A DNA stretch of 64,000 bases from Convolutriloba macropyga (taxonomy: Eukaryota): positions 22,692,001-22,756,000 of the forward strand of contig NC_134482.1 in NCBI RefSeq assembly GCF_964194025.1, written 5' to 3'. The translations under genes were made by a program, and so were the position numbers. The notes beneath the pieces are model-generated. The model searched no databases. It was not told the origin of the DNA and saw only the letters and a list, made by a program, of their open reading frames with translations. Below, piece by piece: positions 3,175 to 54,950 of the stretch (positions within the stretch are counted from its first letter, which is position 1; the number at the start of each line of letters is the position of its first letter).

Positions 3175-3930
3175 ACACGCAAATTTTTCAAGGTTTTTAA
3201 AATTTTTTGTCATTTTTGAGGTGTTTCAGCCCCTGGTGTCAAGAAGCTTCCTCTTGGTTTTAATAGAGGTTATTGCATATTTTCTAGTGATAATGGAATG
3301 GTTTCCAACATTTTAACATCATAAGTTTTAGCAGTTTTTTGATAAAAGTTGCAATTTTCAAGATTTTGAAAATTTTTGTCAATTTTTAGGTTTTTCTAAC
3401 CTCAAGGACGAAGGCATCTCCTCCAGGTTTTGGCAATACTTTAATTCATAGTTTTATTGGTAATGGGGAATTTGTTTCAATATTTTAATATTTCGAATTT
3501 AACGACTTTTCAAAAGAAAAATTGCAATTTTTTTTTTAAATTTCTGTAAATTTAGTATTTGTGGTATTTAGTATTTAATATTTAGGTAACCTCCTATGTG
3601 GTTTGCAAGTATGTTACTGCATAGTTTCTAGTGGCAATAGATTGGTTGTCAATTTTTTAATATCACAAATATGTGCAGGTTTTTTAAGTTAAACTTTTTA
3701 AAGTTTTTTTGAAAGTGTTTAGAAAATTTTTGAGTTTTTCCTGCACCAGGGGCACAGGAACCTCATCCAAAGTTTGATTATAAGCTACTGCATGGTTGCT
3801 AAAGGTAATGGATTGGTTATATTGATTGATATTGGTTAATCATTCCATTACCTCTAGCAACCATGCAGTAGCTTATAATCAAACTCTGGATTTCAGCAAT
3901 ATCTTGATGAAATTTAAAATTTTTCTAAAT
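3175..3930. repeat. Diverged ~180-bp tandem repeat containing a local inverted duplication (3766-3890)
   Basis: Recurrent blocks resembling 'ttattgcatattttctagtgataatgg' and 'aaaatttttgtca' at ~180-bp spacing. 3766-3815 is the near-perfect reverse complement of 3843-3890. Confidence 0.6.
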
Positions 3931-11836: not shown

Positions 11837-12823
11837 CCCGGGTTGAATTTTTCCGCCCAAAATGACGTAAAAGTGGGGCTGCAATGGAGGGATTTTTTAG
11901 GAAAAAGCAGCCTAAAACTCTTACACCTTTTTGGGCTGCATTGGGCTTCCAACGGGGGTAAAAATGGTGTAAGAGTGATAGGGTAAAAGACAAATTAACC
12001 CCCCACTCTTACATCTTTTTCCTCTGTCAAGGGGGGTAAAACGATGTAAGAGTTCGGGGGTAACGGAGAAAAACCCCCGAACTCTTACATCGTTTTACCC
12101 CCCTTGACAGACCGAAAAGATGTAAGAGTGGGGGGTTAATGTGTCTTTTACCCCCCCCCCCCCACTCTTACACCATTTTACCCCCCTCGGAAACCCAATG
12201 CAGCCCAAAAACACGTAAGAATTTTGAGCTGCATTTTCTTAAAAAATCCGCTCATTGCAGCTCCACACTTACATCATTTTACCCCCCTTGGCAGCCCAAC
12301 TCTTGCATCATTTTATCCCCCCCCCCCCCCCCCACCAATCTTACATTGTTTTAGCCCCCATACCTGAAGATTGCCAAAAAACCAATTACCCCCTCACTAT
12401 TACACCATTTTACCCCCCTTGGCAGCCCAGCTCTTACATCATTTTACCCCCCTCTGAACAAATTACCCCCTCACTCTTACACCATTTTACCCATTGCAGC
12501 ACACTCTTAAATGGAAATTTCAGTCAGGGGGGTAATTCCCCAAAAGTCTTTCAATTGCAGCCCATTCCTACATGGCAATTTCAGTCAGGTGGGGTAATTC
12601 ATGAAAAGTCCTCCCATTGCAACCAACTCTTACATGAAAATTTCACTCAGGGGGTGGGGGTAATTCCTCAAAAGTCCTCCGATTGCAGCCCAACTCTTAC
12701 ATCATTTTACCCCCTCTGAGCAAAGTACCCCCACACTCTTACATCAATTTACCTCCCATAGACGAATTACCCCCCACTCTTACAACAAAATGGGAGGATT
12801 TTTGGGAGGACATTTGACCCGGG
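11837..12823. mobile_element. Non-autonomous DNA transposon, probably CMC/EnSpm-like
   Basis: Termini CCCGGGTTGAA...TTTGACCCGGG with 2-bp TSD CA/CA. Many subterminal repeats of ACTCTTACA(T/C)CATTTTACCCCC in both orientations, plus an internal ~67-bp-arm palindrome at 11994-12140. No transposase ORF. Confidence 0.65.
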
Positions 12824-17945: not shown

Positions 17946-18964
17946 TCAGTTCTGGTAAACTTTCTTAGGCAACATTGCAGCTCCTACGAGTCCAATTGTA
18001 ATGTAGATCAAACAGATTCCAGTGACGTAATGTTGGTCATAATCTGCCAGGTCCACTGTCAAGTAAGGCAAAACAGGCAGTGTGAAATACATGAAAAATG
18101 TACACACTCCAAACAGAGTTGCTCTCACTTTAGTGGGCAGAAGTCCGGATAGCCGTAGCCACATGTTCAAATTTACGACCTGGTTAAGAACCTTGATGAG
18201 AGAAATTATAAAAAGTGCTGACGTAACAGATGGGCATGAGAAAAGAATTGTAGTCAATAGAAAATTGATGCTGTATGAAAGTATAGCAGTAACTTTCAAA
18301 CTGACTCCACTTTTGAGCACGGGAATTACAACTATAACCGCTATGACCTCGCCTAAAACTGTCAATAACATTAATAGATAATCTTCCCCGTCCAAGTAAA
18401 CTTTCCGAACGGATAATTTCGAGCAGTAGTAATTTCGACCTTCTGAAAATACGAATTCGTTTTTGATGAAAACCATTCCGTAGTTTATAAATCGGGTCGT
18501 TGTTCCAATCAATGCTATGCATAACATACTTCTCAAAATTTCTTTATTTTGCACAGCTTGTTTTACGTTTTGCCAGAAAGTAGAGTTGTCTTCTTCAATA
18601 GAGCCAAGCTCGGGTTCACGAATTAAGGAAAAACTGCCCGGAAGTTCCTTTTTGTTACTCTTGGCAATCTTTTCGAGAATTTTGAACGCCTTTTCACTGT
18701 TGCCGGTGTGAACTAAATAACGAGGAGATTCCTCCAAAACGAATACAGAAAGTACACAGAATATTATAAGTGGTATTGATGTTATTGCCAAGTAAATTCG
18801 CCACAAGTCTGTGTTGTTCATGAAAGAGAGAAGGTACCCGATGAAAATTGGGAAGGTGCCGGCGAAGACGTACCCCCCAACTTGGTTGCCCGATAGAGGT
18901 CCCACCCATTGGAATTTGGTAGGCAAGTACTCGTAGTAATACGTCATAGTGATGTTTGTCACGC
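17946..18964 (-). CDS. MFS transporter, SV2/SVOP-like (SLC22-related), exon 2
   Basis: Acceptor TTTCAG ends at 18965 on the minus strand, giving a phase-1 join (G|GC = Gly) in frame with the 338-aa ORF. Motifs YEYLP, WR and ESPRYL, multiple TM helices, and LPTKVRAT in the C-terminal half. Confidence 0.9.
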
Positions 18965-19264
18965 CTGAAACAGATGCTTCTCAAACAATACCTCTTTACA
19001 ATACCTTCCTTAAGCTGTATCCTGCCCGGTATATAAATTTCACATGCCTCTAATGAGAAAAACAACTCATATGAACGTTTTAAATACAACACAAAGGAAT
19101 TTCAATTCCAATCAGATGAAACTAGTGCGGCCGTTTTGCCATTAATAACGTACTGACTGTTATCTTCGCTACATTCGAAGCAGTAACTTTCGGAAATATT
19201 CCGCAGAAAAGTCGGAGAGATGCAAATCTACACCACTAATTTTCAATAAATTTTGATACTGATT

Positions 19265-19763
19265 CCCGGGTCAAGGTTTGGCGGTGAATTTTCGTACGAA
19301 ATGCGGTGAAAAAAAATTTCACCGCGTGTTTCTTACATCTTTTTGCGGTAAATCGCGGTGAATTATTTATTTTCACCGCGTTCTCACAAAAATGATTCGG
19401 CACCACACGGGTTCGAACCTCTGACCTCCTGCATGCCTTCAAATGCTAAGTCAACTGCTCCAACTGTCACTAACATCTTGTGAATTTAAATCAGATTGAG
19501 TAAACTTTGGAAATCATATGCCGTGAATTTTTACATGAAATGTGGTGAATTATTTTTTTCACCGCTTTCACCGCATTTCTTACATTAATGTGCCACAAAA
19601 GTCGATGCGGCGAATTTTTGCAAGAATTGTGGTGAATTTTTGTAGGAAATGCGGTGAAATGCAGTGAAATATTTATTTTCACCGCAATCACCGCATTTCT
19701 TACAAAAATTCACCGCATTCACCGCATTTCTTACAAAAATATACCCAAAAACCTCGACCCGGG
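19265..19763. mobile_element. Non-autonomous CMC/EnSpm-like element in the transporter intron
   Basis: 15-bp TIR CCCGGGTC(A/G)AGGTTT and 2-bp TSD TT/TT. Subterminal TTCACCGC/GCGGTGAA repeats. Internal tRNA-like segment at 19398-19470 (minus strand, GGTTCGAACCC). Confidence 0.7.
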
Positions 19764-20072
19764 TTTTTTAAAACTCAACGCAAATTTAAAAGCCACTTGG
19801 TTAAGGTTACATGCTTGAAATTAATATTAAAAAAAAACATTATTAATTTCTCTCAAACAAAGTTTATTCCAATTATGTTAGTCTTGTGGTCTTTTTTATG
19901 CGATTTTTCGCTCGACCAATGTTTCCTCTGATCCACTGAACCTGTTTAGGAGACGTAAATTCTTGGTGTAAAGGGTAGTTCGTACGAGTATGAGCCCATC
20001 ACTTCACCCCCCCCCCCCCCCCCCCCCCCCCCGGCCAGTCATTTGAGAGCAATTCGCCCGACGTTAATTTAC

Positions 20073-20664
20073 CTCCAGCAAATGAGAATATTAATCTGAA
20101 GAGAATGAGCCACATTGCAGTTGGAGAAGCACAACACATGTAACTCCAGATCATCGCCCAGACTCCGGACAATATCACAGCTGGCTTGCGACCATGCTGG
20201 TCTGCAAAATAACCCCATAGTGGGTAACTCAGGGCAAATCCAGCATCCGTGGCCGCGTTCAGCCCGTTTTCGCGACTAATATCCACATCCAAATCGTTTA
20301 CCATCATAGTGAACAAAATAGGAGTCAATTGAACCATGCTGAACTCGCTGAAGAACGCGAGTAGAAGCACTGACAAATGAAGTGCATGTGACTTCCCGAA
20401 TCCTAATCTGTCCATGACTTCGGATGTCGTGTACTCGGCACCTTCCTTAAAAGGAAAAAGAGAATCCGAATCACTTGATGGGTCACTAGAAGTCCACTCA
20501 ATAATTCCGAGTAGACTGCTGTTAGTACTCTCGGGGTAACTCGTAGAGGGAGAAGGGTCTTCTGTGAACTCACTCGAACCCTGCCCCGGGTTGTCCTCAT
20601 CTGGGCTGTCGCCTTCTTCCCAAACAAGCTCACCTTTCTTCACTAATTTCCTGTATGCACCCAT
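20073..20664 (-). CDS. MFS transporter, SV2/SVOP-like, exon 1
   Basis: ATG at 20664, acidic N-terminal tail, MDRLGFGKSH, MFS motif A GYFADQHGRK, FRLIF. Donor G|GTAAAT at 20072 gives a 1108-bp intron; the spliced CDS is 1611 nt (536 aa). Confidence 0.9.
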
Positions 20665-21185
20665 GTGATCAGTTGTAAATGTAAATTATTTCACGTGTTG
20701 ATTATCGATTCACGTTTTTTCAACATCAATCCTCGAGAAAGAGGCGTACGCGATCGAAAGATAGCTGAGATTGAGAAAAAATAGATATGAAAAGAGCACG
20801 AGTAAAATCAGTTCAAAAACGTTAATATTATTATTAATAATAATAACATAATATGATATAGTCAAACTTGAATTTAGATCAGTTCACTGTAACTTTGATT
20901 GTAAAAAAGCTCAGTAGCGAATAAAATTGTACTAGCAAAGCATTAGTTTTTATTCAGAAGTCAGAAAACAACAACTAAACAATCATTCTTTTTATTCAGC
21001 TGCTTTATATTACAGTCAAACATCGCTAATATAGCTCATGATCAAAAGAATTATGTATATTGGATACATTCCACTTTTGCCTGAGGGTAAAAACCATTGA
21101 ATTGTGACCAATACGTTGGCTGGCTCTAAACGTTTCTATTTTAATTATTTCTTTATTTTGAGGTGAAAAGGTGACACTAAATGTG

Positions 21186-21293
21186 AGTAGTGGGAAAAAG
21201 GGGCTATCCAGACCAAAAACTCAACCCTAACGGGTATTCGTTTTTAACAGGATAAATGCCCCTTTTTCCCACTACTACATATAAACATTACTT
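21186..21293 (+). repeat. Polinton left TIR (108 bp), internally palindromic
   Basis: Matches the reverse complement of 41335-41442 with 9 mismatches (manual count). 21186-21204 is the exact reverse complement of 21258-21276. Confidence 0.95.
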
Positions 21294-22329: not shown

Positions 22330-23203
22330 TATACCATTATTAATAAGAAAGGTTGCTAAATTATAATATTTACATGAACAATTTTCCCCAATTTGAGTAT
22401 CAACAGATCTTTCATTTAAATTTTTAGTAAATCCTAGGTAAATCTACATCCGTGTGTTGTTTCTTTATATGTGTCCATGTCCCACCATATCTCACAACAG
22501 AAGGACAATATAGACAATTAACTTTAGCTGAAGTACAAATTCTACATGTATACTTACTTTCATCAAAATCAGCTAGTGTTTTTAAAGAATAACATCTATA
22601 ACAATTTCTAGTTTAAGCTTTATTATTTCTAGCATTAGCCTTAACATTAACATTTGGATTTGGATTTGGATTAGCATTCAGATTAACATTTGGATTTGGA
22701 TTGGCATTAACATTAACATTTGGATTTGGATTAGCATTAACATTAACATTTGGATTTGGATTTGGGTTAACATTAACATTTGGATTTGGATTAACATTAA
22801 CATTTGGATTTGGATTTGAATTAGCATTAACATTAACATTTGGATTTGGAATAGGAGTAGGATTAGGAATAGAATCAGAATTAGAATTAGAATCAGAATT
22901 AGAATAAGAATTAGAATTAGAAGAATTAGAATCAGTATTAGAATTAGAATTAGAATCAGAATCAGAATTAGAATTAGAATTAGAATCAGAATTAGATTTA
23001 GAATTAGAGTTAGAGTTAGAGCTAGGACCTTTTGAAGCAACTCCCCTTATCTTTGAATAGGCAATACTAATGCAAACACCTCTCAAAAATTTACTTCCAC
23101 TTACACACTTACGAATTTTATCCTTATGATTCATTTTATAATGAAAAAGTAAATTCAAGGGAAATCCACTTTTATAATTACACTCTAAACATGCTGCTCC
23201 CAT
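22330..23203 (-). pseudogene. Polinton accessory zinc-finger protein with NS/NP/NV low-complexity linker
   Basis: N-terminal C2H2-like [22 protein letters not shown]. After the stop at 22613 the same frame continues CYRC...CRIC...CLYC...HIKKQH. Confidence 0.6.
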
Positions 23204-23357
23204 TATTTATAAGGAATCAAAATTTTATATATATATAATTATTCAAAAATATTTGTATCTAATCAAACTCTTATAACTAGTTAAACTTTTGGATAAACTT
23301 TTGGATAAACTTTTGGATAATCTCTTGTAACTAGTTAAACTTTAAACTATAATATAT

Positions 23358-23678
23358 TTATATTTCAAAATATTTATAACTAGCTATAATTCCAACTAAA
23401 TCTGTAGCACAATCTATAGAGAAGGCAAACTTAGCTTGAGTTTCCATTCCTAACTTATTAAGAGTATTATGTTCATATCTTTTATATAAAATCTTTTCAT
23501 TACTCAATTCGGCTTTATCTCCAATAAAATATATAATTTCATCTCTAAAATTTGGATTATTATTATATAGTTCATTTAAATCATCTCTACAATTTTTTAA
23601 AGCTTCAGTTTCTTCAAACATATACTCTTCTTGTTTAGTCCAATATTTATATATGGGTGAAATCTCATGGCTATGCAT
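23358..23678 (-). CDS. Polinton accessory ORF, unknown function
   Basis: 106-aa ORF with globular-protein composition directly downstream of ATPase 1; no recognisable motif. Confidence 0.45.
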   Translation of the reverse strand: MHSHEISPIYKYWTKQEEYMFEETEALKNCRDDLNELYNNNPNFRDEIIYFIGDKAELSNEKILYKRYEHNTLNKLGMETQAKFAFSIDCATDLVGIIASYKYFEI

Positions 23679-23729
23679 GGATGAAGTCCCATGGCTATGT
23701 GTGGACGAAGTCCCATCATGTTCTTCACA

Positions 23730-24566
23730 TTAAGCAAAGCTTGCTAATGTATTTGTTCTATTTATCAAATGGCCTGCTTGTGTTGTCACTTGTGCTGCAG
23801 CCCTTACTGTTGGATCAGGTTTTAAAATATTATATATCCATAAGAGGAAACCCACAAACCCTATTTTACTTCCTCCATACTTTAGACAATTAGCTACAAA
23901 CTTTTTTTTTGTTAGAACATCATTCTGAATCTTAATACCTTCTGATATAAGAAGTTTATTAAAATCGAACTGATAGTTATCTGTATGAACAGTAATTCTA
24001 TCTGTAGCACTATTCATTAATGGTTTAATATACGCTATAAGTTTATTTATCTCATCAGTTTCAAAAATATCTTTTAAACTAAGAGCTTTAAGGTCTAGGA
24101 AAACAAATCTTGAGTCGTACATCATACTTCTATTCCTATCAATAATAATAAAAGTATCCTCTTTAACATTATATTCAATCATACCATAACGAAGTTCAGG
24201 AGCCATTCCGTCTGTACAATTATAATAACAATTATTTAACTCACTATTTGTACCATGGAAGTTTTTTGTTTTATTACCCATATCATCAAGAACAATTACA
24301 CAGTTTTCAAAATTATCTATATTTTTTGATGTGATCTCTTTTATATCACACAAAATAAATTCGTCATAGGGTATACGAGTTTCTGGATTTATCCAATCTC
24401 TTTCATCTTTACATAATTTGATTATGGACCTCTGGTCATGCTCTTGATCTTGATACAACTTTAAATATCGTCTGACAAAATATGTTTTTCCTCTACCAGT
24501 ACCACCATAAACAGTAGTATGTAACGGCGACTTTTCTAATTCAAATCTAAATAGACTTTTATTCAT
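23730..24566 (-). CDS. A32/FtsK-type packaging ATPase 1 (apparently internally deleted)
   Basis: Walker A GGTGRGKT and Walker B VIVLDD. The expected GRH arginine-finger segment after Walker B is missing. Confidence 0.75.
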   Translation of the reverse strand: MNKSLFRFELEKSPLHTTVYGGTGRGKTYFVRRYLKLYQDQEHDQRSIIKLCKDERDWINPETRIPYDEFILCDIKEITSKNIDNFENCVIVLDDMGNKTKNFHGTNSELNNCYYNCTDGMAPELRYGMIEYNVKEDTFIIIDRNRSMMYDSRFVFLDLKALSLKDIFETDEINKLIAYIKPLMNSATDRITVHTDNYQFDFNKLLISEGIKIQNDVLTKKKFVANCLKYGGSKIGFVGFLLWIYNILKPDPTVRAAAQVTTQAGHLINRTNTLASFA

Positions 24567-25033
24567 AAACCCACCGAAACTTTCCTATAGTTTGGTATAT
24601 TTTATTGGCATGTCATCATATATTATATAACAAACCACTGCTATTAACACAAGTATAAGAATTATTAAATCTGTTTCCGTTTTTATATATGAAATATAGA
24701 CTTATAATTAGACTTAGACTTAGACATAGACTGAGACTTATAATTAGAGTTAAAATTAGAGTTATAATTAGGCTTAAACGTGGACTTATAATTAGACTTA
24801 GGCTTAGACTTATAATTAGAGTTATAATTAGACTTAGACATGGACTTATGGTTAGACTTAGGATTATAATTAGAGTTATAATTAAAGTTATAATTAGAGT
24901 TAAAATTAGAGTTATAATTAGAGGTGTAATTAGAGTTCTAATTAGACTTATAATTAGAGTTATAATTAGACTTATAATTGGAATTATAATTAGACTTAGA
25001 CTTATAATTAAATGAATATTTATCATATTAAAA

Positions 25034-25450
25034 ATGCTTATCCTAACTTTTGATGAATTTAATATTAGATTTGGTATTGATGATAAAGCTATGAGTATTA
25101 TCAGAATAGAAGATATAAGTAAAAATATAACTATAATACCAATTGAGGTAGTAATGAGAGATCAGACACCACTTACTATCAATGACGATGACTTCAGCAT
25201 TATTGTTAATCTACATCCAACTGATGGTACACATTGGGTGTTAGTTAGAAGGAGAGGTGGAAAAATTTATTACTTTGACAGTTTTGGTGTTGAGACTCCA
25301 TCATTATTCTTAGAAGAATATGTTGATTTAGGCTCTAAGGAGAGAATACAACAATATGATGAATCTTATTGTGGTGCTTATTGTTTTTATATGATCTATC
25401 TTTTTGATAATGGATATAGAATAAAAGGGGGCTTTGAATACTCTAGTTAA
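25034..25450 (+). CDS. Adenain-like (C5 family) cysteine protease
   Basis: GTHWV, YYFDSFG, IQQ and YCGAYC motifs; catalytic H, D, Q and C all present. Confidence 0.93.
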   Translation: MLILTFDEFNIRFGIDDKAMSIIRIEDISKNITIIPIEVVMRDQTPLTINDDDFSIIVNLHPTDGTHWVLVRRRGGKIYYFDSFGVETPSLFLEEYVDLGSKERIQQYDESYCGAYCFYMIYLFDNGYRIKGGFEYSS

Positions 25451-25719
25451 TCAAATTAAAAGTCCAGGTGGGTATAATAAGTGTCCGTGTTTATGTTGTA
25501 AAGATAGAGTCAATGTCAATGTCAATGACAATGTTAATGATAATGACAATGACATGTTAATGACAATGTTAATGACAATGGCAATGTTAATGGTAATGTT
25601 AATGACAATGGTAATGATAATGTCAATGGTAATGGTAATGGTAATGTTAATGACAATGACATTGGTAACGACAATGGTAAGGCCAATGTTAATGTTAATA
25701 ACAATGACAATGGAAATAG

Positions 25720-26635
25720 CAATGTTATGGTAATGATAGTGTTTATAACAAACAGAGGACCCCCGTATCAGATGATGGCACAGCATTGTCGAAGACCCAT
25801 AGTGATGATGCTGATGATATAATATTTAGTATAACCAAAGAAAGAGATAAACCCAACTCACTATGTAGATGTGGAAAGGTAAGCAATGTTGGAGATAAGT
25901 CAAGAGGGAACTCCCTTTCACCAAAGACCTCCGGTCTTGTCTCACCAAGGACCTCCGGTCTTGTCTCACCAAAGTCCTCTGACCTTGTCTCACCCATCAA
26001 TGAGGAATCTAATTTACTGATTGATGTTAATGGTAGCCTACAATCAAGGCTGAATAATCCGAATATAAATTTTGCTGCCATAATCCCAGAAAATTTCAGA
26101 TGTATAATATCTGGTCCTAGTGAATGTGGAAAGACATTCTTATTAAGGAATTTGGTCCTACTGGTAATTTATATAATGATCTAGAGTTTTATGATGGTGA
26201 AGAATGGTCGAAGTCCCATATTGTATTATTAAAGATATAAAAGAATTACCCCCACCCGATAAACTACCTGAAAACTTAAATAAATTAAATATACTTAAGG
26301 ATGTTGACGCTAGGGAACAATTTATTAAAGAATACTTCCATAGAGGTAGACACAGTAATTGTAATATGATATATCTTAATCAAAATTTATTCTCATTAGA
26401 TAGGCAGAGTGTTAGAGAGAGTTGTAATAAATTTGTTCTAATTCGTCAAAGGGGTCATGTACTTCAAACAATACAAAGAGATTTCCTTAATGATGATGAA
26501 AATAAATATAAAGATTTTAGTAAAATTTGTAAAAAGGTATGGAAAGCCCCTTATAATTATCTTGTTCTCGATGAATCTAAAAATAGCAATGTTAATGGTA
26601 GACTAAGAATTAATTGGGATAAGAGAGTTTTATAG
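25720..26635 (+). pseudogene. A32-type packaging ATPase 2 (frameshifted)
   Basis: FRCIISGPSECGKT Walker A, then YFHRGRHSNCNMIYLNQ and SVRESCN motifs and C-terminal APYNYLVLD. Split into two ORFs with no in-frame ATG before Walker A. Confidence 0.88.
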
Positions 26636-26649
26636 TTTAATTAAATTTA

Positions 26650-27145
26650 TGAGTAAGTTTAAGTGTAAGTGTAAGTATAAGTGTATGAGTAAGTGTAAGT
26701 GAATAAGTAAAGTGTAAGTGTAAGCGTAAGTGTAAGTGTAAAGGTAAGTCTAAGTGTAAGTGTTAGTCTAAGTGTAAGTCTATAAGCAAGTATGAGTATA
26801 AGTCTATAAGTAAGAATGAGTATAAGTCTAAGTCTATAAGTAAGTATGAGTATAAGTCTATAAGTAAGTATGAGTATATGTCTAAGTGTTAGTCTAGTCT
26901 AAGTCTAAGTCTAAATCTATTAGTAATTAGGAGTATAAGTCTAAGTGTAAGTCTAAGTCTAGGACTATGACTAAGTCTAAGTCTAAGTCTAAGTCTATGA
27001 CTATATCTATGACTATAAGTCCATGACTATGTCTATGTCTCTGACTATGAATATGTCTATGACTATGTGTATGACTAAGTCTATGACTATGACTATGACT
27101 ATGTACAAATCTATGGCTAAGTCTATGACTATGACTATGACTAAA
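26650..27145. repeat. Hexanucleotide-period microsatellite between convergent genes
   Basis: The unit grades from AAGTGT through AAGTCT/AAGTAT to ATGACT. Confidence 0.9.
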
Positions 27146-27146
27146 T

Positions 27147-28045
27147 CTAAATCAGATGCAAAGTTAAACTCAATACATCACCTTTAAAAGCTATAGGTCT
27201 TACATGCTCATCTTTAATATGAAATTGAATATATTCTATTCTATCCTTTGTTACATTTTGATATAAGAGAATAGTTGGTATAAAATGTATCAAGTAACCT
27301 TGTAGTTCAAATAGAGTAAAAGTATATAGTATGTCTGTGTTATTACCATTATCTTTAACACCAGATATCACATTACAATGAATGTTATTAGTACTAAAAC
27401 CCATAATATCAATAATCTTTTGAGATGTATATTTACCTTGTTTATGAACTACTTTTCTAATTCCTAGTAATGAAGCTATTGAGTTTTCTACATCAAAGCT
27501 AAGTGCACCTTGTTTGATTTCCATTTTCCATTTCATTGTATTCATATCGGGTTCTATTATAACGTTACCCTCAGTTTCTACTTTTATTAATTCTGCTATT
27601 TCAGTTAATTCATATGCACTCGGTGTAATAGTTGAATATAACAATTGGATTCCCTTATAATTATAATTAAGGACAGATGTATTGGTAGAGTCAGTGTTAT
27701 TGTTAGTGTTAGAGTCTGTGTTAGTGTTAGTGTTAGTGTTAGTGTTGAGTTAGAGCTAAGAGGTTCTGCTAAAGCATGGGGCTTCTTTCTTTCATCTTCA
27801 TCACCATCACCATCTAAAACCGTAGAAGCATATAAAAATTGATTGTTTCCTCTATTCACATTAAACACTGAGTTATAAACCGATAATCTAATTAACCCTA
27901 ACTTTGTTGTATTAAGTATAGGTTCACCAAAGTTAAATTTTTCTGTTGGCTTTATCACTCTAAAGTTAAGTTTGTGTTCTTCTTTAGTTTTAGTTAGAGC
28001 TTCATGTATCTTTTGTAGTTCCCATAAGATTAAGTTGTCTGACGT
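27147..28045 (-). pseudogene. Minor capsid (penton, single jelly-roll) protein
   Basis: N-terminal LSVYNSVFNV..NNQFLY; C-terminal IHCNVISG..NG..ILYTF...YQNV...I..I.FHIKDE..RPIAFKGDVLSLTLHLI, typical of Polinton pentons. One frameshift near 27640; in-frame ACG at 28045 after TATAAAAA. Confidence 0.8.
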
Positions 28046-28218
28046 TTTTTATACTCAAAAATTAAATTATATTTATAGCTATGGTGAAACACGGGCGAAG
28101 CCCATATTTATAACCATATTTATAGTCATAGTTAAAGCTATAGTTATAAACATAGTTATAGTTATTTTTGTTGTTATAGCTAAAGTCTTAATTATAATTA
28201 AATTTTTGTTTTATAAAA

Positions 28219-29452
28219 ATGGACTTTAGTTTGGATACAACTTATGGTTATAATAATGATATACACAGAAGTAAGATTATAAAATATAAGCCAATAGTCT
28301 AGCAACATTGAATACAGTCAATGCTAACATTAATATCATACTCAATAGAGAAGAGAATCGTTTAAATATACATGATTCATATCTGGAGATAGAGTTTGTT
28401 GTATCAGGTGCTGCTGGTGGCGTATTTGCTAATAATGCCAATATCAGATTAGTTAACTAAGGTATGATGGCATTGTTTAGTTCAATTATGCTTGAAACTA
28501 GTGGTGGTAGGACTATTGAATATATAGGTCATTGTCATCCTAATCTATTAATGTATAGGTCATTAACTTGTACTGGTAGTGAATATGAGAGTGGTTTTGT
28601 TAGAGGTCATGACATAAGAGATAGTCAACTCAAAGGTGATCATGCTGCCTGCTGCAAATAGGTCATATGTATATGATGGTTAAGATGAGTGATCTATTTG
28701 GTTTTGTAAATGATTTAGAAAAAGTTATATATGGGCTAAGATTTAAACTAATATTAAAAATTAATAATAATGATAGAGCTCTATATAGAGTTGGTGCTGG
28801 TGCTCATGCAGTAGCTAATGATGTTAATATAGAAATTAGAGGTATATCATAGTGTGCGCCTAGTATTGATCCTAGTAATGATAAAATATTTATTGTACAG
28901 AAAGGATTAAATAAAAAGAATAATATTGACTTCAGTTATTATGAAAGAAAAACATTTTACAAGAATGTACCCAATGCCACTAACTTCTTATTTGATCTCG
29001 GTGTGGAAAGTGATATGGAAAGACTCCAATACATAATAATTGGTTTTGAAAATAATAATGTTAATGATGCAAGCACATTTGATATATTGATTGTTACTGA
29101 ATGTCATTGTAAGATTGGTAGTGAATTTTATCCTGAGGATACAATGAATATTAATTATGGTGCTAATAATTATAATGATTCTTTCAACGAGAATGTTAAT
29201 TTTAATAAAGATTATAATAGATTATCTCATAATATTAAACCATATATAAATCATAGAACATTCAAAAGTAGTTATAGATTATATGTATTTGATACTAGAT
29301 ATGAAAATAATCATATAGGTCCACAACCAATACAACTTAGTTGTAAATTTAGTGCTGCAGTTGCAAATGTTATATGTCAAGCATTAGTACTAACTAGAAA
29401 GGTTATTAGTGTTAATAGTGATGGTAATAAGATGGTTGATGTAATCTCATAG
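28219..29452 (+). pseudogene. Major capsid (hexon, double jelly-roll) protein
   Basis: ATG after TTATAAAA. Motifs HDSYLEIEF, LVN*GMMALFSSIMLE, DLFGFVNDLEKVIYG, YIIIGF, YVFDTRY; ~410 codons with stops and a frameshift. Confidence 0.85.
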
Positions 29453-31972: not shown

Positions 31973-32915
31973 CTAATTTGTAGCTGACCGAAGGTCAATA
32001 TTTAAAGATTCCAAAACCTTATTATTAGATTCAAAATCAAACTCAGAATTTATTAGTTCCTGTTCATAGTATTTACCTTCTATTATCTCACCATTAATGT
32101 CGTCTATTTTTTATGTTGGTGGTTGGGCTTTTAGAACTTTTTTAACTTTAATAATTCTCTATTCTAGTTAGAAGTGTATCCTTTAGAGAAAATGTTGCGT
32201 TTGTCAGCATTCCTGACATAATCACCGGCTCTAAATTTTGGTTTAATATTAGTTTTATATTGGTGCTTAAAAACGAATGAGTATCTAACTTTATCAGGAT
32301 TATTATAAGCATCAACTGGTGTCATATTAGTTGTTGAATGAATGTTATCGTATAGGTTTTTACTGCATCATTTATTATATTTACACAATTACCATCACCA
32401 GTAATGAACATTGGTTTATTAATTATGTGTAATAGCGTTCAATTAAATCTCTCTATAAACACAGCCTTTAAATCACTGTATGTAGAATATAGTTCTGTTT
32501 CATATTCTTTAAGTAACGAATTAAATGTTCTCTTGTAAAACTCACTTCCTCTATCTACCCATAACTTTTCTGGTTTTCTATGTTTGCCTAATACTATTTT
32601 AGAGCCATTAATTATCGATAAACCAGATTTATTCCTCTATGGAATAGCCCATGCAGATTTTGTGAATATATCAAAAACTGTTAATATATTATTATTATCA
32701 TTATTGTATTTAATTAGAGATGACTTATCAATTCAATCAGCTGACCATGTTTCATCTTTATAAGGGGGTATTATTCTTTCTCTTCTAAAGTTTGTTATTT
32801 GAGGTCTTAATAATTCTTTAGCTAGTAAGGGTTGTTTAGTTTTAATTGAGCCTTGTTGTTTCATTATAGACATTGTCACAGCTTTGCTCATGGACGTGGT
32901 TGTAGGCCTACTCAT
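31973..32915 (-). pseudogene. Retroviral-type (rve) integrase of the Polinton
   Basis: ETWSAD*ID, LTVFDIFTKSAWAIP, KPEKLWVDRGSEFY, KAVFIERFN, HSTTNMTP, FSKGY, EIIEGKYYEQEL; contains stops and frameshifts. Confidence 0.92.
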
Positions 32916-35900
32916 TTACCATAATTAAAAACAACATTTTCTAGTTGTTCTTGATCTATAATATTCATAGATAATAGTGGTTCAGATATTTTTAACATTT
33001 CATAATATAATCCTTCATGACCAGCTTTTGTTTCAGTATAAGTAATTCTAATCTTTCTATTAGACTATCTGCGAAGTTACAGCTATGATTGTCGAGTTGA
33101 TCTTTAGTTAAAACCTGTCATAGTTTTTCTCTATATCCTCTAATATACGTTTTATTGTTCTATATCTACTGCTTGTCTTATCACCTTTTGCTATATCATA
33201 TCCAATATCAAATAAAAACCTTTTAATTTTGTTTTCATCTTCACCGATATCACCAGATGTTACATTTGGGTTAGTAAGAAAGTTAATAAACCTATCTGAA
33301 ATTTCATATATATTATTCTTAGCAATAAATGAATTTTCTTGATAAGTTATTTTGACACCATTCATGTCAAATTCACCAATATCTAAAGTTCCGAACAATA
33401 ATGTTAATTGAAGGTTAGATTGAATTGTCTTTTAACTAATAATATGAGCTGTGTCTTTATCTACTATAATTCCCTATAATTCCTGGTTTATCTTGGGCTT
33501 CCTCTACAGCTTCATTCGACTTCATTAATTCTTCATCAGACTTCATTAATGCTTCATTAAACTGGGAAGGGGCGAAGCTTGCTGGATCATCTTAATATGT
33601 TTACCTAACTCTTGAGTTTGCCAATCTATTGCTCTTAATGTTTGTTCACCTAAGGCTAGTTTCTGTTCATTGTTTGTATTTAGTGCTTTAGTTAAAGGTT
33701 TTAGTTGTTCATGATTAATAATAATCATAGATAATATTTAACAATTAAATGTTTAGATATATTTAACACTTCATCATATAATCCATCATGAACAGCTTTT
33801 GTTTCTAGTATTAGTATTTCTAATCTTTCTATCAGGGAACCTGCTTTGCAGATTAGACTATCTGTGAAGTTACAGCTATGATTGTCGAGTTTATCTTTAG
33901 TTAAACCCCTGCCATAGTTTTTTTCTTTATCCTCTAATAAACGTTTTATTGTTCTATATCTACAGCTTTTCTTATCACATTTTCCAATATCATATCTAAT
34001 ATCTAGTTGAAATCTTTTAATTTTGTTTTCATCTTCCTCGACATCACCATATGTTAGATTTGGGTTAATGAGAAGATAATAAATCCTTCTGAGCATTCAT
34101 ATATATTCTAACTATTATTGGTGTCATATTAGTTGTTGAATGAATGTTATCGTATAGGTTTTTACTGCATCATTTATTATATTTACACAATTACCATCAC
34201 CAGTAATGAACATTGGTTTATTAATTATGTGTAATAGCGTTCAATTAAATCTCTCTATAAACACAGCCTTTAAATCACTGTATGTAGAATATAGTTCTGT
34301 TTCATATTCTTTAAGTAACGAATTAAATGTTCTCTTGTAAAACTCACTTCCTCTATCTACCCATAACTTTTCTGGTTTTCTATGTTTGCCTAATACTATT
34401 TTAGAGCCATTAATTATCGATAAACCAGATTTATTCCTCTATGGAATAGCCCATGCAGATTTTGTGAATATATCTACAACTGTTAATATAAACTTATTAT
34501 TATTATTGTATTTACTTAGAGATGACTTATCAATTCAATCAGCTGACCATGTTTCATCTTTATAAGGGGGTATTATTCTTTCTCTTCTAAAGTTTGTTAT
34601 TTGAGGGCTTAATAATTCTTTAGCTAGTAGTGGTTGTTTAGTTTTAATTGAGCCTTGTTGTTTCATTATAGACATTGCCACAGCTTTGCTCATGGACGTG
34701 GTTGTAGGCCTACTCATTTACCATAATTAAAAACAACATTTTCTAGTTGTTCTTGATCTATAATATTCATAGATAATAGTGGTTCAGATATTTTTAACTT
34801 TTCATAATATAATCCTTCATGACCAGCTTTTGTTTCAGTATAAGTAATTCTAATCTTTCTATTAGACTATCTGCGAAGTTACAGCTATGATTGTCGAGTT
34901 GATCTTTAGTTAAAACCTGTCATAGTTTTTCTCTATATCCTCTAATATACGTTTTATTGTTCTATATCTACTGCTTGTCTTATCACCTTTTGCTATATCA
35001 TATCCAATATCAAATAAAAACCTTTTAATTTTGTTTTCATCTTCACCGATATCACCAGATGTTACATTTGGGTTAGTAAGAAAGTTAATAAACCTATCTG
35101 AAATTTCATATATATTATTCTTAGCAATAAATGAGTTTTCTTGATAAGTTATTTTGACACCATTCATGTCAAATTCACCAATATCTAAAGTTCCGAACAA
35201 TAATGTTAATTGAAGGTTAGATTGAATTGTCTTTTAACTAATAATATGAGCTGTGTCTTTATCTACTATAATTCCCTATAATTCCTGGTTTATCTTGGGC
35301 TTCCTCTACAGCTTCATTGGACTTCATTAATTCTTCATCAGACTTCATTAATGCTTCATTAAACTGGGAAGGGGCGAAGCTTGCTGGATCATCTTAATAT
35401 GTTTACCTAACTCTTGAGTTTGCCAATCTATTGCTCTTAATGTTTGTTCACCTAAGGCTAGTTTCTGTTCATTGTTTGTATTTAGTGTTTTAGTTAAAAG
35501 TTTTAGTTGTTCATGATTAATAATAATCATAGATAATATTTAACAATTAAATGTTTAGATATATTTAACACTTCATCATATAATCCATCATGAACAGCTT
35601 TTGTTTCTAGTATTAGTAATTCTAATCTTTCTATCAGGGAACCTGCTTTGCAGATTAGACTATCTGTGAAGTTACAGCTATGGTTGTCGAGTTTATCTTT
35701 AGTTAAACCCCTGCCATAGTTTTTTTCTTTATCCTCTAATAAACGTTTTATTGTTCTATATCTACAGCTTCTCTTATCACATTTTCCAATATCATATCAA
35801 ATATCTAGTTGAAATCTTTTAATTTTGTTTTCATCTTCCTCGACATCACCATATGTTAGATTTGGGTTAATGAGAAGATAATAAATACTTCTGAGCATTC

Positions 35901-36446: not shown

Positions 36447-39400
36447 TCACAGATCATTATATATTCTAATAGCAGCTTCAATTAACTTTCTATCATCATA
36501 AATAGTTAGTTCTAGAATATTATAAATCAGTTGGTCCTTGTCTAAATGTAATGATGCATTATTAATCAGGTAAGGGCCTCAGGCCTTGGTTCCCTAATCT
36601 GCTTTGCCGATTTTATTTACCTAGATCTTATTTGAATAGATATAGATTCTCATCATAAAGATCGCTTTTAATTTTATATACATAGAATTTTTTATCATCA
36701 AGCTTATTCAGACTTCTTTTATTAGTTTTGATTGTTGACATCTTATCCCCGACTTCAAGTATTCTACATTCTTCTATAATTCTTTCTTTATTATCCATTA
36801 ATTCATTATAGTAGTCTTCATGTTTGCCATTGTTTTCTTTCTTTATTCCTTTCTCTTTTGCCGTTCCATTCTTGAAGCTATACGTCTTTGGTTTTAATAC
36901 CATGATTTCTTCTATCTCTCTACTTCCAAGTTCATGGCTGAAGTTAGCTGGAACTTTACTATTAGTTTTGATTGGGGCGTCTAAATTGGTTAAGTCCATG
37001 TATTTATCATCAACCTTACCTTCAATAAAGCTTAATTCAAAACTATGAGTATCAATATAGTGTAGCATTAGATCTTTAAGTGATGGTTGTAATAGAATTT
37101 ACACATGTGAAGTTTACTAAGTTCTAATACAGTTGAGCCCAAGTATATTGGTTTATCATAATGTATTTCTTTTTTATAAAATTCTATTAGAGTGTTACTA
37201 TCATATCTAATTACATCTTCACATATTGGTTTACTTGCAGCTTTAAGTATTTCATAATCATCTGTTAGAATCTTAGCTTCTAAATATTTTAATGGGTTAT
37301 CACAACTTTTACCAAATTGGGAATTATTCGTTTACTTGAATATATCCTTTTCATCCTCAGTCTTAGCTTCTGCTCTCATTTTATTTTTGAGTTTGATATA
37401 ATATCTAATAATATAATCTTGTTTGAACTTAATTATTCTATGAACTTGAGTAACATTTATACCCATCCTAGCAACAAACTTTAACATTCTGTAGTGTATC
37501 GGATATTCATATTTATTATTCAGATCTAATATTAGTTTCTCATTTTTTGAAGAAGTTGGAGGTCTTTGTTTATATAACGGTTCATTATTCTCTACTTTTC
37601 TTCTATACGGTAGTAATTGAAATTTACTTGTTCTCTCATTACATTCATTAGTATTTTCTAAATCACAGACAAGCCAGTAGTCAAAATCACTATCATCTGG
37701 AGTGTTTAATACTTCGTCTAGAGTTGTAATAGTAAAGCTGAAGTCTTTATAGGGCAGCTTTTGCATTAATGCATAACAGTACAAGTTATTAGCATCGATG
37801 TACCATATAGATTTTTGACTTTGACTTTGACTTTGATTCTGACTTTGTTTTTGACTATGACTTTGACTTTGACTATGACTATGACCTTGACTTTGACAAT
37901 TAATATATCTATTGCCCATAACACCTTATATACCACCTCTCATTGCACTAATGAAATCTTTTAGCATTTGTTCATCTAGTATTGTTTCTAATTCGACTTC
38001 ACTGAGTTCTAGGAAACAATCAAAGCTGAAACCAGATAGACTAATATAATGCAAAAGATTGAGTTTATAAATATATCTATGTTTAAATTAACAAATAGAC
38101 TGAAGCAATGTTCTAATATTCTGCCATCATTCTCCATATACTCTATTGTGAATTCTTTACCTGTTTTCATACTATTAGAATTATTAACGTCATCAACATC
38201 TGCTTGAGTTTGTAGCTTGGCTGTTACCGATGATCTAAAGTCTTCTATTGATAGATTACCCAATTTATTATTATAGCTATTCTCATTCTTAAAATACTCA
38301 TAAAGATACAACGTTCTATTTTTAATACCATAAACAGTTGCTATTTTATCCAGAGACATTGTCAGAAAGTTGTAACTATCTATAAACTTTAGTACCTACT
38401 CTGAACATTCTAGCTTTACCATTAGTACCAGGTAGTGCATCAACTCTTCTGTTATTATTATTCTGTGTAAATGTTTCACTAAATATTTGATTGAAGTCAT
38501 AACCTTTACCATTATGAAATACTACTGGAATGAAGTTTTGTTTTCTATAGTTTAAATTACAAATATTGCATGCAGGACCTCTATAATTATCTGTTTCATG
38601 ACAGTGATCTCTAACCTTATTAATGCAAGTTTTATTACAAATATGACAAGTGTTATTGGTATCATGATATAATTTATCTTCTTTAATAAATATTATTGGT
38701 TTGTTTAACTTGAACTTATTCTCAGTTTCTATTTCCAACAGATCTTTGACATAATCTTTGATACAGTCTGGACCAAAATATGATTCTTAATTTCCATTAA
38801 AAGGGGCTTCGCCCTTGGTTGGTGAAACAGGGTTTGCCCTTCCCCAACTTAAGCCAACAACAACAGGTATATGGTTTGATATTTTATATGTATTATCACC
38901 AATCTTTTTATTAAAGCTGTTCATATAACATTCAATATCGCTATAGATGACTTTCTTCACTTCTTGTTCTTTGTAATGGTTCTTGAATTTAATCTGTTTT
39001 AATTTAGGGCATACAATCTTTTGTTTGGTTCGTGTGCAGCATTCATGGGTTTCATATATTTGTTGAGTGGTAAACCAAAGAGAACAATTATCACAATACC
39101 AATACTTTGCATGTTTAGTATTAGGTCATTCCAATAATACTTCTATGTTTTTAATTAATGCGCAGTGTTCATCCTATGCTAGTATTCTTACATTCTTACT
39201 ACCTTTGACGAGGTTTGAAAATTTATCTAATATTTCTACTTTAGTATTATGGGGCCCACCCATGTTTTACCATCTTCAGTTGAAGGCTTATCATCAGTTG
39301 TAGGTTTATCTTTAGTTATAGGCCTATCTTTAGTTATAGGACTATAAACCCAAATGTTGATGTTATATTTATTCTGCCTTCCTGTTAAATAATCATATGT

Positions 39401-40328
39401 GTTTTCATTATCTTCGCAGTCATCAATTAGTTCATTAATATATTTCTTTCTCTAGTTGCATGATCAGCTGCAGGGAATAATGCGGCTGTAGTACAAAATC
39501 GCAAGCAGTTAAATTTATTGTTTCTAATATTTAATATTGCTTTTGTTTTACTTCTCAGTCCACGTGGTAGTTCAGTATATGATTCTAATGACGGCTTAGC
39601 TCTTCCTATGTTCAATTGCACGTCTCATATTCCAATAAATTCATAATCGTAACCATAGCCTTCATATGTTTCTTTAACATGATCAAGCCATTGGTTTAGA
39701 TTCAGTCGATGATCTTTAACCATATATTCATCAGTTCCAAAGTTTATTTTTATAGACTTCGGGACCCCTTCTTTGCCATCGGGAGTTCTCTTTCTATATA
39801 CGCAATTAGCACTGACCTAAAACTTATAGGATTTAAATAGTTTAAACCCGTCTAATATGTAATCTATTGGCTCATTAATATCTTGATAAAACTATCATCG
39901 GATTTGTTAATATATAACTGCCTTTGATTGAAGCTTGATATAATATTAAAATTATTGTCCTGGGCTACGTTTTCCCTCCAGTGTTTGTTCATGTGGGTTT
40001 GTAGACCTATATCGTTTTTAAAATTTTGGCCACAGACCCAACAGGGGACTACAGTTTGGGGTCATCTTCTTCGGGGTCATTCACCCTCTTCATGTTTTCT
40101 GGTATGGGCTTAGACTTAATCATGGGTTGGGGTTTAGTTTGAGGGGGTATTAGCGAAGCCCTTTCAGCCTCATCAAGATCCATGATCGTTCCCCTAGCTC
40201 TTTTCTGGCGCTTGCCTATTAAAGTATGTTTGATTAATTCTTTCCTTGAGTCTAAGAATAACTCGCAAATATCACAGAAGTTCACACTTTTCACATTAAA
40301 TAACTATTTTTTAAGAACAATAATTCAT
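36447..40328 (-). pseudogene. pPolB: Protein-primed family B DNA polymerase with N-terminal Zn fingers and endonuclease-VII-like insert
   Basis: SYTELP..KAILNIRN..NC (terminal-protein region); CHIC...VRDHCH...YRGPACNICN (EndoVII-like); FHNGKGYD (ExoII); MRGG; YIDANNLY (motif A); K..NNS.FGK (motif B); YIDTHS (motif C with D->H); KPKTYS; KEKGI. Many frameshifts. Confidence 0.95.
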
Positions 40329-41334: not shown

Positions 41335-41442
41335 AAGTAATGTTTACATGTAGTAGTGGGAAAAAGGGACATTTATCCAGACAAAAATGAATACCCGTTA
41401 GGATTGAGTTTTTGGTCTGGATAGCCCCCTTCTCCCACTACT
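41335..41442 (-). repeat. Polinton right TIR (108 bp), internally palindromic
   Basis: Reverse complement of the left TIR. Internal AGTAGTGGGAAAAAGGG at 41352 pairs with the terminal CCCTTCTCCCACTACT; TATCCAGAC/GTCTGGATA forms an inner stem. Confidence 0.95.
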
Positions 41443-41934
41443 AATGTGACTGTCCACTGTTACTTAAACATGCGAAAAATTAAAGGCAATCTTTCTTTTC
41501 GGATTTATTGTGTTTCCCCCCCCCCCCCCCCCCCCTCCAGCATAGGGGGCATACAATTTTAGCGACCCCTATTTTTTACATAGTAATGAGCTATACAAAT
41601 TTCAGCCAGTATTAGTTTTTATGTTCTACGAGAGACAGTCACATTTGTTTTGAAACCCAGGTGAAAAAAAAGATGAAAAATATTGCTGTTGGTATCAAAA
41701 CTATTGATACTGCACAACATAAATTTCCCATCGCAGTATCACTCATACTTATTCATGCACTTGTCATCAGTCATTTAGATTACTCTGCTTTTTGTCTCCT
41801 TCAAAGTGGTTCATTATTGGTGCATTGGAGCATTTCAACAACAGGTTGAATTATCTACGGCCAGCTATGGGATTAAAAAGCTCACTAAACAAATATCTTT
41901 GTAATGAATATTCTATCTGTTTCTCAAGATTCTC

Positions 41935-53399: not shown

Positions 53400-54950
53400 G
53401 AGGAGGAGTATGACATGGTAGTAAATAACAAATCTATAATACAATTCCAAAATTTCACAATAAATATGAGATTTAAAAAAGTTCGTTTTCAAGAGCAAAA
53501 CCCAATTTCAATGCCAGAAAGAAAGCCTCATAAATAATGGTGGGATTCATCATAATTCGTCAAGCAGGGAAACCAGTTATGTGTTAGTTTGGCTAACAGG
53601 GACCTATAAGGTAGAAAATGACATTCAAAAATCCCAAACAACTTACAGAAAATGGATGATGAACCGCGATAAATAAAACTGATATGACCAAAACCAACAG
53701 CAATTATTTAAAACCTTAGAACACAAATTCAGCTGCTTCTCTCATTGAGCAATAAAATCTTTCTGATTTCGTTTCTTCTAATGACTTTCATCTTGTCTTG
53801 ATTGAAATAACAACCCGTAAAACTTTAATAATCTACTTTCCTAAAACAATAAAGTCTTTGACTGCGTACTTTCCATCGGTAAAAACTCGAGTTTTAAGTG
53901 CTTTAGAAATCTTCAAACGAATTAGTAAAAATATACAGTTCACAGATATTATATTGGCGGCAGTGATGGGATTCGGGAGCTGGAGAATGCCGAGGAAGAA
54001 GTACGAAAACTAAAGCAGCAGGGTAAAGAATTAGCAAATTTCAAAGAATGTCATGCAGAGGAAGTTAGAGGCGATAAACGCACAGAGCCCCTACAGTCGG
54101 CCTCCAAAGTTCAAATTCTACAAGCTTTTTTGGTACCTCAGGGTACATCGACGAGCACAATAGTCCAACACTATATGACCCTAACAATGCTGTGCCGTAC
54201 AGATTTTTGCGGTATCGTGAAGACATTTAAAAATATAATACAAGCAAGGAAAGTCTTGGAGGATGAAAAACCCAAAGCCTTTACGATAAATATGGAATTG
54301 AGAGGGCGGATTATAATATCCGTGCTCTGTATATTTTTACTATTTAGTTTAGGGATTTCCAAAGAACTTTAAACCTTGTGTCTTTACTGATGGAAAATAC
54401 ACAGTCGAAGACTTTATTGTTTTACGCAAGTAGATTATTAAATGGTTTTACAGGTTTTCATTACAAGCAAGACAAGATTAAAATTATTAGAAAGTAAATA
54501 AGAAAGATTTTATTGCTCAATGAGAGAGGCAGCTGAATTTGTGTTCCAAGCTGTTAAAAAATGGCTGCTGGCTTTGGTCATATCGATTTTTATTTTAACA
54601 GATAACTGATTTAACAGCTAAACTAACAGATAACTGGTTTACCTACTTGACAAATTGTGTCAAAAACAAACAGTCTTTGAAATATCCCGTCAAAATCAGT
54701 TATCTGATGAATTTCACCAGCGTTATGTGATGAATCTTATCAGCGTTATGTGATAAAACTCACCAGGCTTTCTTTTTTGCGTTGAAATCCGGTTTGGATT
54801 AGCAGCGTTGTGATGAACCTCACCAGATTTTCTTTCTTGTGTTGAAATCCAGTTTTGCTCTTGATAACGAACTGTTTATTCTCCTATTTATTGTGAAACT
54901 TTCGATTTATAGTATTAGTTTTTGATTTGCAATTATGTCATATTTCTTCC
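53400..54950. repeat. Diverged inverted duplication (arms ~53400-53960 and ~54310-54950)
   Basis: For example, AAATTCAGCTGCTTCTCTCATTGAGCAATAAAATCTTTCT (~53725) versus AGAAAGATTTTATTGCTCAATGAGAGAGGCAGCTGAATTT (~54501); matching blocks are colinear in inverted order. Confidence 0.8.

Follow-up and report, generated by a model that had tools for sequence, protein, structure and literature searches.

The 20.3-kb element described here raises the question of why the terminal inverted repeat (TIR) of a Polinton should be able to fold back on itself, and what such an end might do. In the window (the whole 64,000-nucleotide stretch of Convolutriloba macropyga DNA that was analysed), positions 21186-41442 hold a decayed Polinton between AATGTG direct repeats, with the following terminal features:

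21180-21185, no strand: left target site duplication (TSD) AATGTG, identical to 41443-41448
41443-41448, no strand: right TSD AATGTG
21186-21293, plus strand: left TIR of 108 bp, 92% identical to 41335-41442
41335-41442, minus strand: right TIR of 108 bp, partner of the left TIR
21186-21276, plus strand: left 91-nt imperfect palindrome, according to the predicted minimum-energy fold
21186-21204, plus strand: outer copy of the terminal motif, starting with (AGT)2
21258-21276, minus strand: inner inverted copy of the terminal motif, pairing with the outer copy in the fold
41352-41442, minus strand: right 91-nt imperfect palindrome, its loop oriented relative to the element end as at the left

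Structure of the element ends

The palindrome takes up 91 of the 108 bp of the TIR and forms its outer part, with the terminal base paired. A first-pass annotation had claimed that 21186-21204 and 21258-21276 are exactly complementary, that three inner stems let the remainder fold, and that the right end has the same design. We confirmed the complementarity, found all three stems in the minimum-energy fold, and recovered the design at 41352-41442 with a few pairs decayed; as both 91-nt ends fold back, the terminal motif does occur four times. The left palindrome consists of a 19-bp terminal stem, a 3-nt bulge, two inner stems, an apical 4-bp stem and a 4-nt loop, and its predicted energy of -28.4 kcal/mol (z -9.3) was equalled by none of 200 shuffles. 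The two strands of the right end gave -22.4 and -22.7 kcal/mol (z -7.1 and -6.8). In the predicted fold the 3'-terminal base is flush-paired on both strands, with the genome serving as template.

Perfect 19-bp short-range inverted repeats are present in at least two other places in the window, near 3771 and 12023; the distinctive feature of the Polinton repeat is its exact terminal position and its conservation, not perfection alone. Other inverted-repeat structures lie outside the Polinton (11859-12280, 53675-54590, and near 3771-3885) and are probably small non-autonomous elements. On its left, the insertion adjoins pieces of a host major-facilitator transporter gene (17946-20664, minus strand).

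Gene content

A Pfam scan of 27 window ORFs and comparison with sister copies, which have the same gene order as the window element, gave the following features:

23730-24584, minus strand: remnant of a first ATPase-like gene (Pox_A32 E 0.013 and AAA_22 E 0.009, both weak)
25016-25450, plus strand: probable maturation cysteine protease (weak Josephin match only, E 0.0026)
25720-26635, plus strand: second ATPase-like gene in two pieces (AAA_25 E 0.001 for the first piece; gene order shared with sister copies)
27147-28048, minus strand: conserved gene in two pieces, without Pfam match, kept in sister copies
28640-29452, plus strand: remnant of the double jelly-roll major capsid gene (PF21738 E 2.9e-9; 414-aa homologues at most 82% identical)
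32418-32723, minus strand: integrase remnant, first copy within an internal 1.8-kb duplication (68% to a fragment from a sister copy)
34220-34525, minus strand: integrase remnant, copy 2 (72% to a sister-copy fragment)
36628-39891, minus strand: broken protein-primed DNA polymerase B (pPolB) gene (DNA_pol_B_2 E 8.6e-5; N-terminal homology)
38376-38786, minus strand: Endonuclease VII (EndoVII)-like domain within pPolB (PF02945 E 1.8e-7)
39338-39891, minus strand: decayed terminal-protein (TP)/vOTU region of pPolB (40% to the corresponding segment of L142)

Four genes are fragmented in this copy: those for the polymerase, the capsid, the integrase and the second ATPase. By its motifs the protease would be adenain-like, and the gene at 27147-28048 presumably encodes a minor capsid protein, judging by its position. 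The integrase match is an rve hit at E about 1e-3 in two sister copies, the fragment used for comparison scoring E 0.0014, below the curated cut-off. The identification as a Polinton made in the first pass stands on the (AGT)2 end motif, the 6-bp TSD, the double jelly-roll capsid and pPolB, with weak ATPase and protease matches beside them. (AGT)2//(ACT)2 is the common end motif of Mavericks, with (AG)3 as an alternative, in the portion of PMC8097293 cited here.

In this Polinton family the two ATPase-like genes (23730-24584 and 25720-26635) lie on opposite strands and flank the protease gene. Expanded hexamer-type simple repeats at 22613-28048 break up several window genes and yield low-complexity ORFs. 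These elements often carry internal tandem duplications of 1-3 kb (32.4-35.8 kb in the window; also L059, L061, L300 and L301).

Distribution of fold-back ends in the genome

We searched the genome with the end-motif pattern AGTAGTGG-N50..80-CCACTACT, which occurs at 158 sites against 3 for the reversed-pattern control; the same pair of motifs (AGTAGTGG/CCACTACT) at a spacing of N96..126 occurs at 1252 sites, again against 3. With 1410 sites versus 6 in controls, the pattern picks out Polinton ends in this genome with great specificity. A loop pattern matched 72 genome sites and 0 in the control, and the TIR used as a query gave at least 67 matches, with scores computed for 40 of 120 candidates. 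The EndoVII region of the polymerase alone has 3879 first-look candidates, an unusually large Polinton load.

For a sample of whole elements, every fifth of 150 listed polymerase matches was taken, giving 30 elements (three on small contigs were swapped for the next one). Twenty-two of them had a TIR and a TSD with at most one mismatch, four had no TIR match and four had a poor boundary. Fold-back ends of 74, 87, 116 or 124-125 nt are found in 18 of the 22 TSD-bounded elements, clearly at one end only in L108, and the palindrome starts exactly at the TSD in 18/22; the other four have no fold-back within 800 nt. Across the genome the fold-backs measure 70-125 nt (70, 74, 87, 91, 116 and 124 nt were seen) and have unrelated centres, and terminal pairing is kept despite this variation in length and centre and despite insertions in one arm, including, at some ends, outer-arm insertions that reach about 36 nt or more. 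A distant subfamily, whose capsid is about 50-60% identical, has fold-backs of 70-132 nt at most ends and none within 150 nt at a few.

The four elements without a fold-back, together with L096, form a lineage with TIRs of 570-740 bp. It shares the start motif, the TP region and the EndoVII domain and has no inner copy of the motif. Its TIRs are 95-99% identical and it has 25 ends, so this long-TIR lineage has spread in recent times without a hairpin. The predicted pairing at its ends (L094, L096, L100, L102, L104) amounts to 6 bp only, positions 5-10 with 58-63. One element, L086/L087, has an 831-bp TIR and a palindrome together.

A tree of 43 polymerase segments, midpoint-rooted for drawing only, contains four supported clades: the 124-type, the 74/116-type, the 87/91-type and the non-palindromic long-TIR lineage. 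The presence of palindromes in the distant subfamily suggests, on this unrooted tree, that the long-TIR lineage lost its palindrome. The fold-back design is real and clade-wide within this one genome, and it is kept between clades separated by about 0.3 substitutions per site.

Duplication of an element end together with its host flank is frequent. Within C15:31.898-31.929 Mb (L011, L015, L019-L023, L030, L056), an element end and its host flank form a tandem array with a period of about 1.9 kb, in whose units the loop and 3' arm occur twice, so that the end motif is present in two inner copies. Four other ends (L002, L009, L017, L034) have an 82-85-nt tandem duplication of the loop and inner arm that provides a second pairing register; the duplication joint (21289 back to 21208) is present in sequencing runs X1 and X4. 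An apparent head-to-head dimer at C10:61.66 Mb was set aside as two separate insertions, its two polymerases being 75% identical.

Covariation of the two arms

We aligned 49 of the 56 ends of the 87-91-nt class (A1, excluding seven truncated or insertion-bearing ends) and 29 of the 43 ends of the 124-nt class (A2, mostly one end per element). In A1, 90.2% of cells are paired against 84.7% after shuffling (0/500 shuffles) and 16 pairs have changed on both sides (1/500), while in A2 93.7% are paired against 89.5%, again with 16 pairs changed on both sides and a score reached by 0/500; these shuffle controls are not probabilities, because the cells count sequences rather than events and the structures were derived from the member sequences themselves. 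Kinship without structure can also beat this control, and occasional arm-to-arm conversion could itself give covariation. Controls with a slid register in A1 left 40-49% of cells paired.

Variants present in at least three rows are Watson-Crick paired in 169 of 308 cases (A1) and 90 of 136 (A2), compared with 9 of 55 and 14 of 54 for singletons, a contrast one would predict where active lineages maintain pairing while dead copies decay. Covariation extends to the apical 4-bp stem, and the bulges and internal loops are retained, in keeping with selection acting on shape. In 8 of 10 elements a G-C/T-A swap in columns 18/83 agrees across all four sites. Compensatory substitutions, which the first-pass annotation had suggested seeking among copies, are thus found in both alignments, and a loss of the inner inverted copy or of covariation among family copies, the case it had named against its own reading, is not what we observe in them.

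Orientation of the loop and exchange between arms

The base next to an inner-type arm is the interior A at 480 sites and a different one at 8. Only one of these exceptions, L360, is a true flip (1 of 488 ends), compared with about 160 of 488 that we estimate for free flipping; the other seven are five ordinary ends with one changed base, an end whose outer arm was rewritten to equal the inner arm (L356) and a fold-back rearrangement (L357). In the window's class, 54 of 56 ends run into the element interior on the expected side and none of the 56 is flipped. Routine flip-flop of the asymmetric loop is absent, unlike in AAV hairpin transfer. The first pass had proposed to look for flipped ends and for elements ending at the inner motif; among the ends examined L360 is the one true flip, and elements ending at the inner motif are nearly absent.

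At another end, L349, the inner arm has shifted towards the outer one. The element at C1:2120380-2136350 carries one arm mismatch shared by both of its ends (L339/L340), which argues that the ends are homogenised with each other and that recopying of the arms is no routine event. We rejected a circular intermediate in which one palindrome is shared, since it predicts direct loops and the observed loops are inverted.

The terminal-protein region of the polymerase

The N-terminus of pPolB from L142, a palindrome-bearing element, was modelled with a pLDDT of 75 from a 90-row alignment. Residues 16-138 of the model resemble Y-family little-finger domains, with 4IR1 in first place (Z 6.3, rmsd 3.1, 93 aligned), and Y-family polymerase chains make up 8 of the ten best fold matches; a Z of 6.3 is middling. 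Foldseek ranked the same family high at E > 0.05 and returned nothing at E <= 0.001, and a PDB sequence search gave 0 matches. A PolIV little-finger match has been reported for polinton terminal proteins (PMC11161782, cited in part). The region is conserved whether or not a lineage has palindromes. Thus pPolB keeps a predicted terminal-protein domain, and protein priming likely persists. The vOTU was judged by a conserved Cys column and not by a fold match. The EndoVII domain is found in palindromic and non-palindromic lineages, and for this reason a link between that domain and the palindrome is not supported.

Possible function of the fold-back ends

The best reading of these ends, which we regard as about evenly poised between right and wrong, is that they are a selected single-strand hairpin in protein-primed replication, serving as a local duplex origin and as a backup copy of the terminus. 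We infer every step of this. Strand-displacement synthesis would free a single strand, and its 3' end could pair with the inner copy 70-125 nt away rather than await the far end at 15-20 kb. The terminal-protein polymerase would then prime on the duplex end of the hairpin, a trimmed 3' end could be lengthened again with the inner arm as template, so that the motif for priming and for the integrase is restored, and copying would run through the palindrome and leave its orientation unchanged. Of the roles offered in the first pass, that of a terminal hairpin in displaced single-stranded DNA gains support from the retained inner copy and the covarying arms.

This reading would explain why the arms pair while their sequence is free to change, why the terminus is flush and the orientation fixed, why the TP-like domain has been kept and how the arm of L356 came to be rewritten, and it agrees with 6-bp TSDs at the outer motif and with the retained (AGT)2 ends. 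Streptomyces telomeres likewise join protein priming, a duplex between terminus and inner palindrome, and fold-back end repair (PMC5449611, in the part used here), although the long 'Rabbit Ears' duplex described there was found not to be the structure used in repair. Several points weigh against it. The hairpin is dispensable, the long-TIR lineage having spread without one, and a trade-off between hairpin and long TIR has a single lineage behind it, with L086/L087 combining the two. At equilibrium an end-to-end panhandle is predicted at -102 / -108 kcal/mol and two hairpins at about -51 / -53, so that the hairpins would be at most kinetically favoured. The left and right ends are still homogenised, which calls for end-to-end pairing or recombination, and the fold match of the terminal protein is middling in Z, with the Foldseek result beside it.

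We also considered a role in duplex DNA, in which a cruciform at the element-host junction is cut by the EndoVII-like domain or the integrase, or each end offers two inverted integrase sites; it seems to us rather unlikely. T4 EndoVII cuts cruciforms, and pPolB carries a domain of this kind; yet the lineage that lacks palindromes has it just as well. Stems that are imperfect and bulged are poorly extruded from duplex DNA. A cruciform would need pairing and an unflipped loop just as a single-strand hairpin would, and the start of the palindrome exactly at the TSD in 18/22 elements would suit either form of this explanation. The free covariation of mid-stem positions is contrary to plain sequence-specific binding, and cutting at the inner motif should yield solo units or inner-ended elements, which are nearly absent. 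Halocafeteria palindromes are tied to particular RVE integrases (10.64898/2026.07.28.741278), which favours an integrase role.

The same preprint puts forward for Halocafeteria virophages a model in which the 3' hairpin primes itself as in parvoviruses (10.64898/2026.07.28.741278, cited in part); with resolution keeping one orientation, it could be transferred to the present ends, and we judge this unlikely. The predicted flush pairing of the 3'-terminal base on both strands favours it. AAV-type hairpin transfer, however, gives independent flip and flop ends (as PMC11575299 describes in the excerpt used), against 1/488 and 0/56 flips here. The inverted loops also contradict a circle with one shared palindrome, the TP-like domain and the (AGT)2 repeat are kept, and the 63 ORFs scanned in the window and sister copies gave no Rep/HUH Pfam match, a scan that short or broken ORFs escape; the copies are fragmented and several of their ORFs have no assignment.

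It is quite improbable that the palindrome is a by-product, arising from one ancestral fold-back error and kept symmetrical without selection by sporadic arm-to-arm conversion. Such conversion does occur (L356, L349), a lineage without palindrome still spread, and accidental annealing is raised as an alternative for the Halocafeteria elements (10.64898/2026.07.28.741278, in the part cited). Yet asymmetric bulges and loops are kept across subfamilies and have not been ironed out, the mismatch at both ends of L339/L340 implies that the arms are not recopied each cycle, and the design survives both at about 0.3 substitutions per site and in the distant subfamily.

Solo end units

The first pass had further suggested that each end could be a mini-element with AGTAGT...ACTACT termini, mobilised alone by the integrase as in composite transposons. 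None of the 56 ends of the window's class has a 6-bp direct repeat around the unit, and 54 of them enter the element interior; TSD-flanked solos are equally missing among 43 ends of the 124-nt class, 8 sites with a non-interior next base and 37 matches (partly overlapping sets). The one candidate with such a repeat belongs to the distant subfamily: L333 (C13 near 32573300) is a 132-bp fold-back unit with a perfect 6-bp flanking repeat in a 3-kb locus without Polinton gene. Since the arms of the two ends are direct repeats, deletion between them would give such a product, as with solo LTRs, and L333 does not imply independent mobility. A further candidate from a distant subfamily, the 78-bp unit L283/L328 (C4:68423359-68423436), has flanks alike at only 4/6 positions; the Polinton ORFs of the window are unmatched within about 10 kb on either side, and it lies near host CDT1- and LSM12-like sequence. 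In spite of these two loci, the counts of solos and the deletion route make independent mobilisation of the ends extremely improbable.

Comparison with known systems

The replication of Polintons and their exit from the genome are known only from a model, and these elements stand at the root of adenoviruses and virophages (PMC11161782, portions cited). The elements described here share with published Polintons/Mavericks the end motif, TSD, size, capsid, ATPase, protease, a putative integrase and the TP-vOTU-pPolB order; unlike in the accounts drawn on (PMC8097293 and PMC11161782, both in part), the TIR of most lineages is largely one fold-back palindrome and there are two ATPase-like genes. 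Neither 'palindrom' nor 'hairpin' occurs in PMC8097293, in PMC8502044 or in 10.1101/2023.08.22.554363.

TIR palindromes as such are already known. The July 2026 preprint reports them beside the TSD in Halocafeteria seosinensis virophages of subtypes 1, 2, 5 and 6, as well as in PLV subtype 4, preferentially with non-pPolB replicases, and reads them as hairpin priming (10.64898/2026.07.28.741278). There, as here, the palindrome sits inside the TIR and next to the TSD, and the element that bears it is an integrating member of the Polisuviricotina; here the host element is an animal Polinton with a TP-bearing pPolB, and the stems are imperfect, covarying and fixed in orientation. The non-pPolB association is not seen in our sample, which was drawn by pPolB and in which 18 of 22 TSD-bounded elements are palindromic. 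The caveat of the first pass that palindromic TIRs might already be described thus holds in part, for protist virophages and one PLV subtype, where the elements are mostly non-pPolB (10.64898/2026.07.28.741278). The literature searched, which lay outside subscription journals and Repbase Reports, yielded no description of palindromic TIRs in animal pPolB Polintons or of covariation or orientation tests, and on that basis the palindromic, covarying, orientation-fixed ends of these elements would be new. Two readings of terminal palindromes become separable, since under the 2026 proposal of hairpin priming one would expect flips or non-pPolB replicases, and neither applies here.

The closest works-like analogue is the Streptomyces telomere, where the end is protein-primed, its first bases are able to pair with a palindrome lying about 80 nt further in, and truncated ends are repaired by fold-back through Tap (PMC5449611). 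It differs in having unrelated sequence, apparently unrelated proteins, several small palindromes, end patching after internal initiation and no integrase, according to the part of that paper used. AAV/parvovirus ITRs have a terminal palindrome of about 125 nt with the 3' end poised as primer, and their ends can pair with each other, as here (PMC11575299, in part); here, instead, there is no flip/flop mix, no Rep was detected, and the element is double-stranded, integrating and has its own polymerase.

If the ends do act as single-strand hairpins in protein-primed replication, a tentative and rather doubtful extension is that a major animal Polinton clade swapped a long adenovirus-style panhandle for a local, selected telomere hairpin, origin and repair template in one and convergent with Streptomyces, with lineages switching between hairpin and long TIR and the EndoVII-like domain perhaps cutting a cruciform for release. 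Natural compensatory variants, hundreds of fixed-orientation ends and a hairpin-less sister lineage provide a defined substrate with built-in controls.

Metagenome scans found no relative. The 120 pattern matches on viral contigs were rejected as chance background, with a mean of 3.4 of 12 further positions paired against 9.1 in this genome and no Polinton ORF nearby. A small share in sequencing run X5, from a second organism, is not independent evidence, its depth being low and its flank matching a locus of this genome. Three IMG/VR entries (L153, L226, L230), on viral contigs without Polinton genes, carry an 88-94-nt palindromic unit that also starts with AGTAGTGG and is probably an unrelated bacterial repeat.
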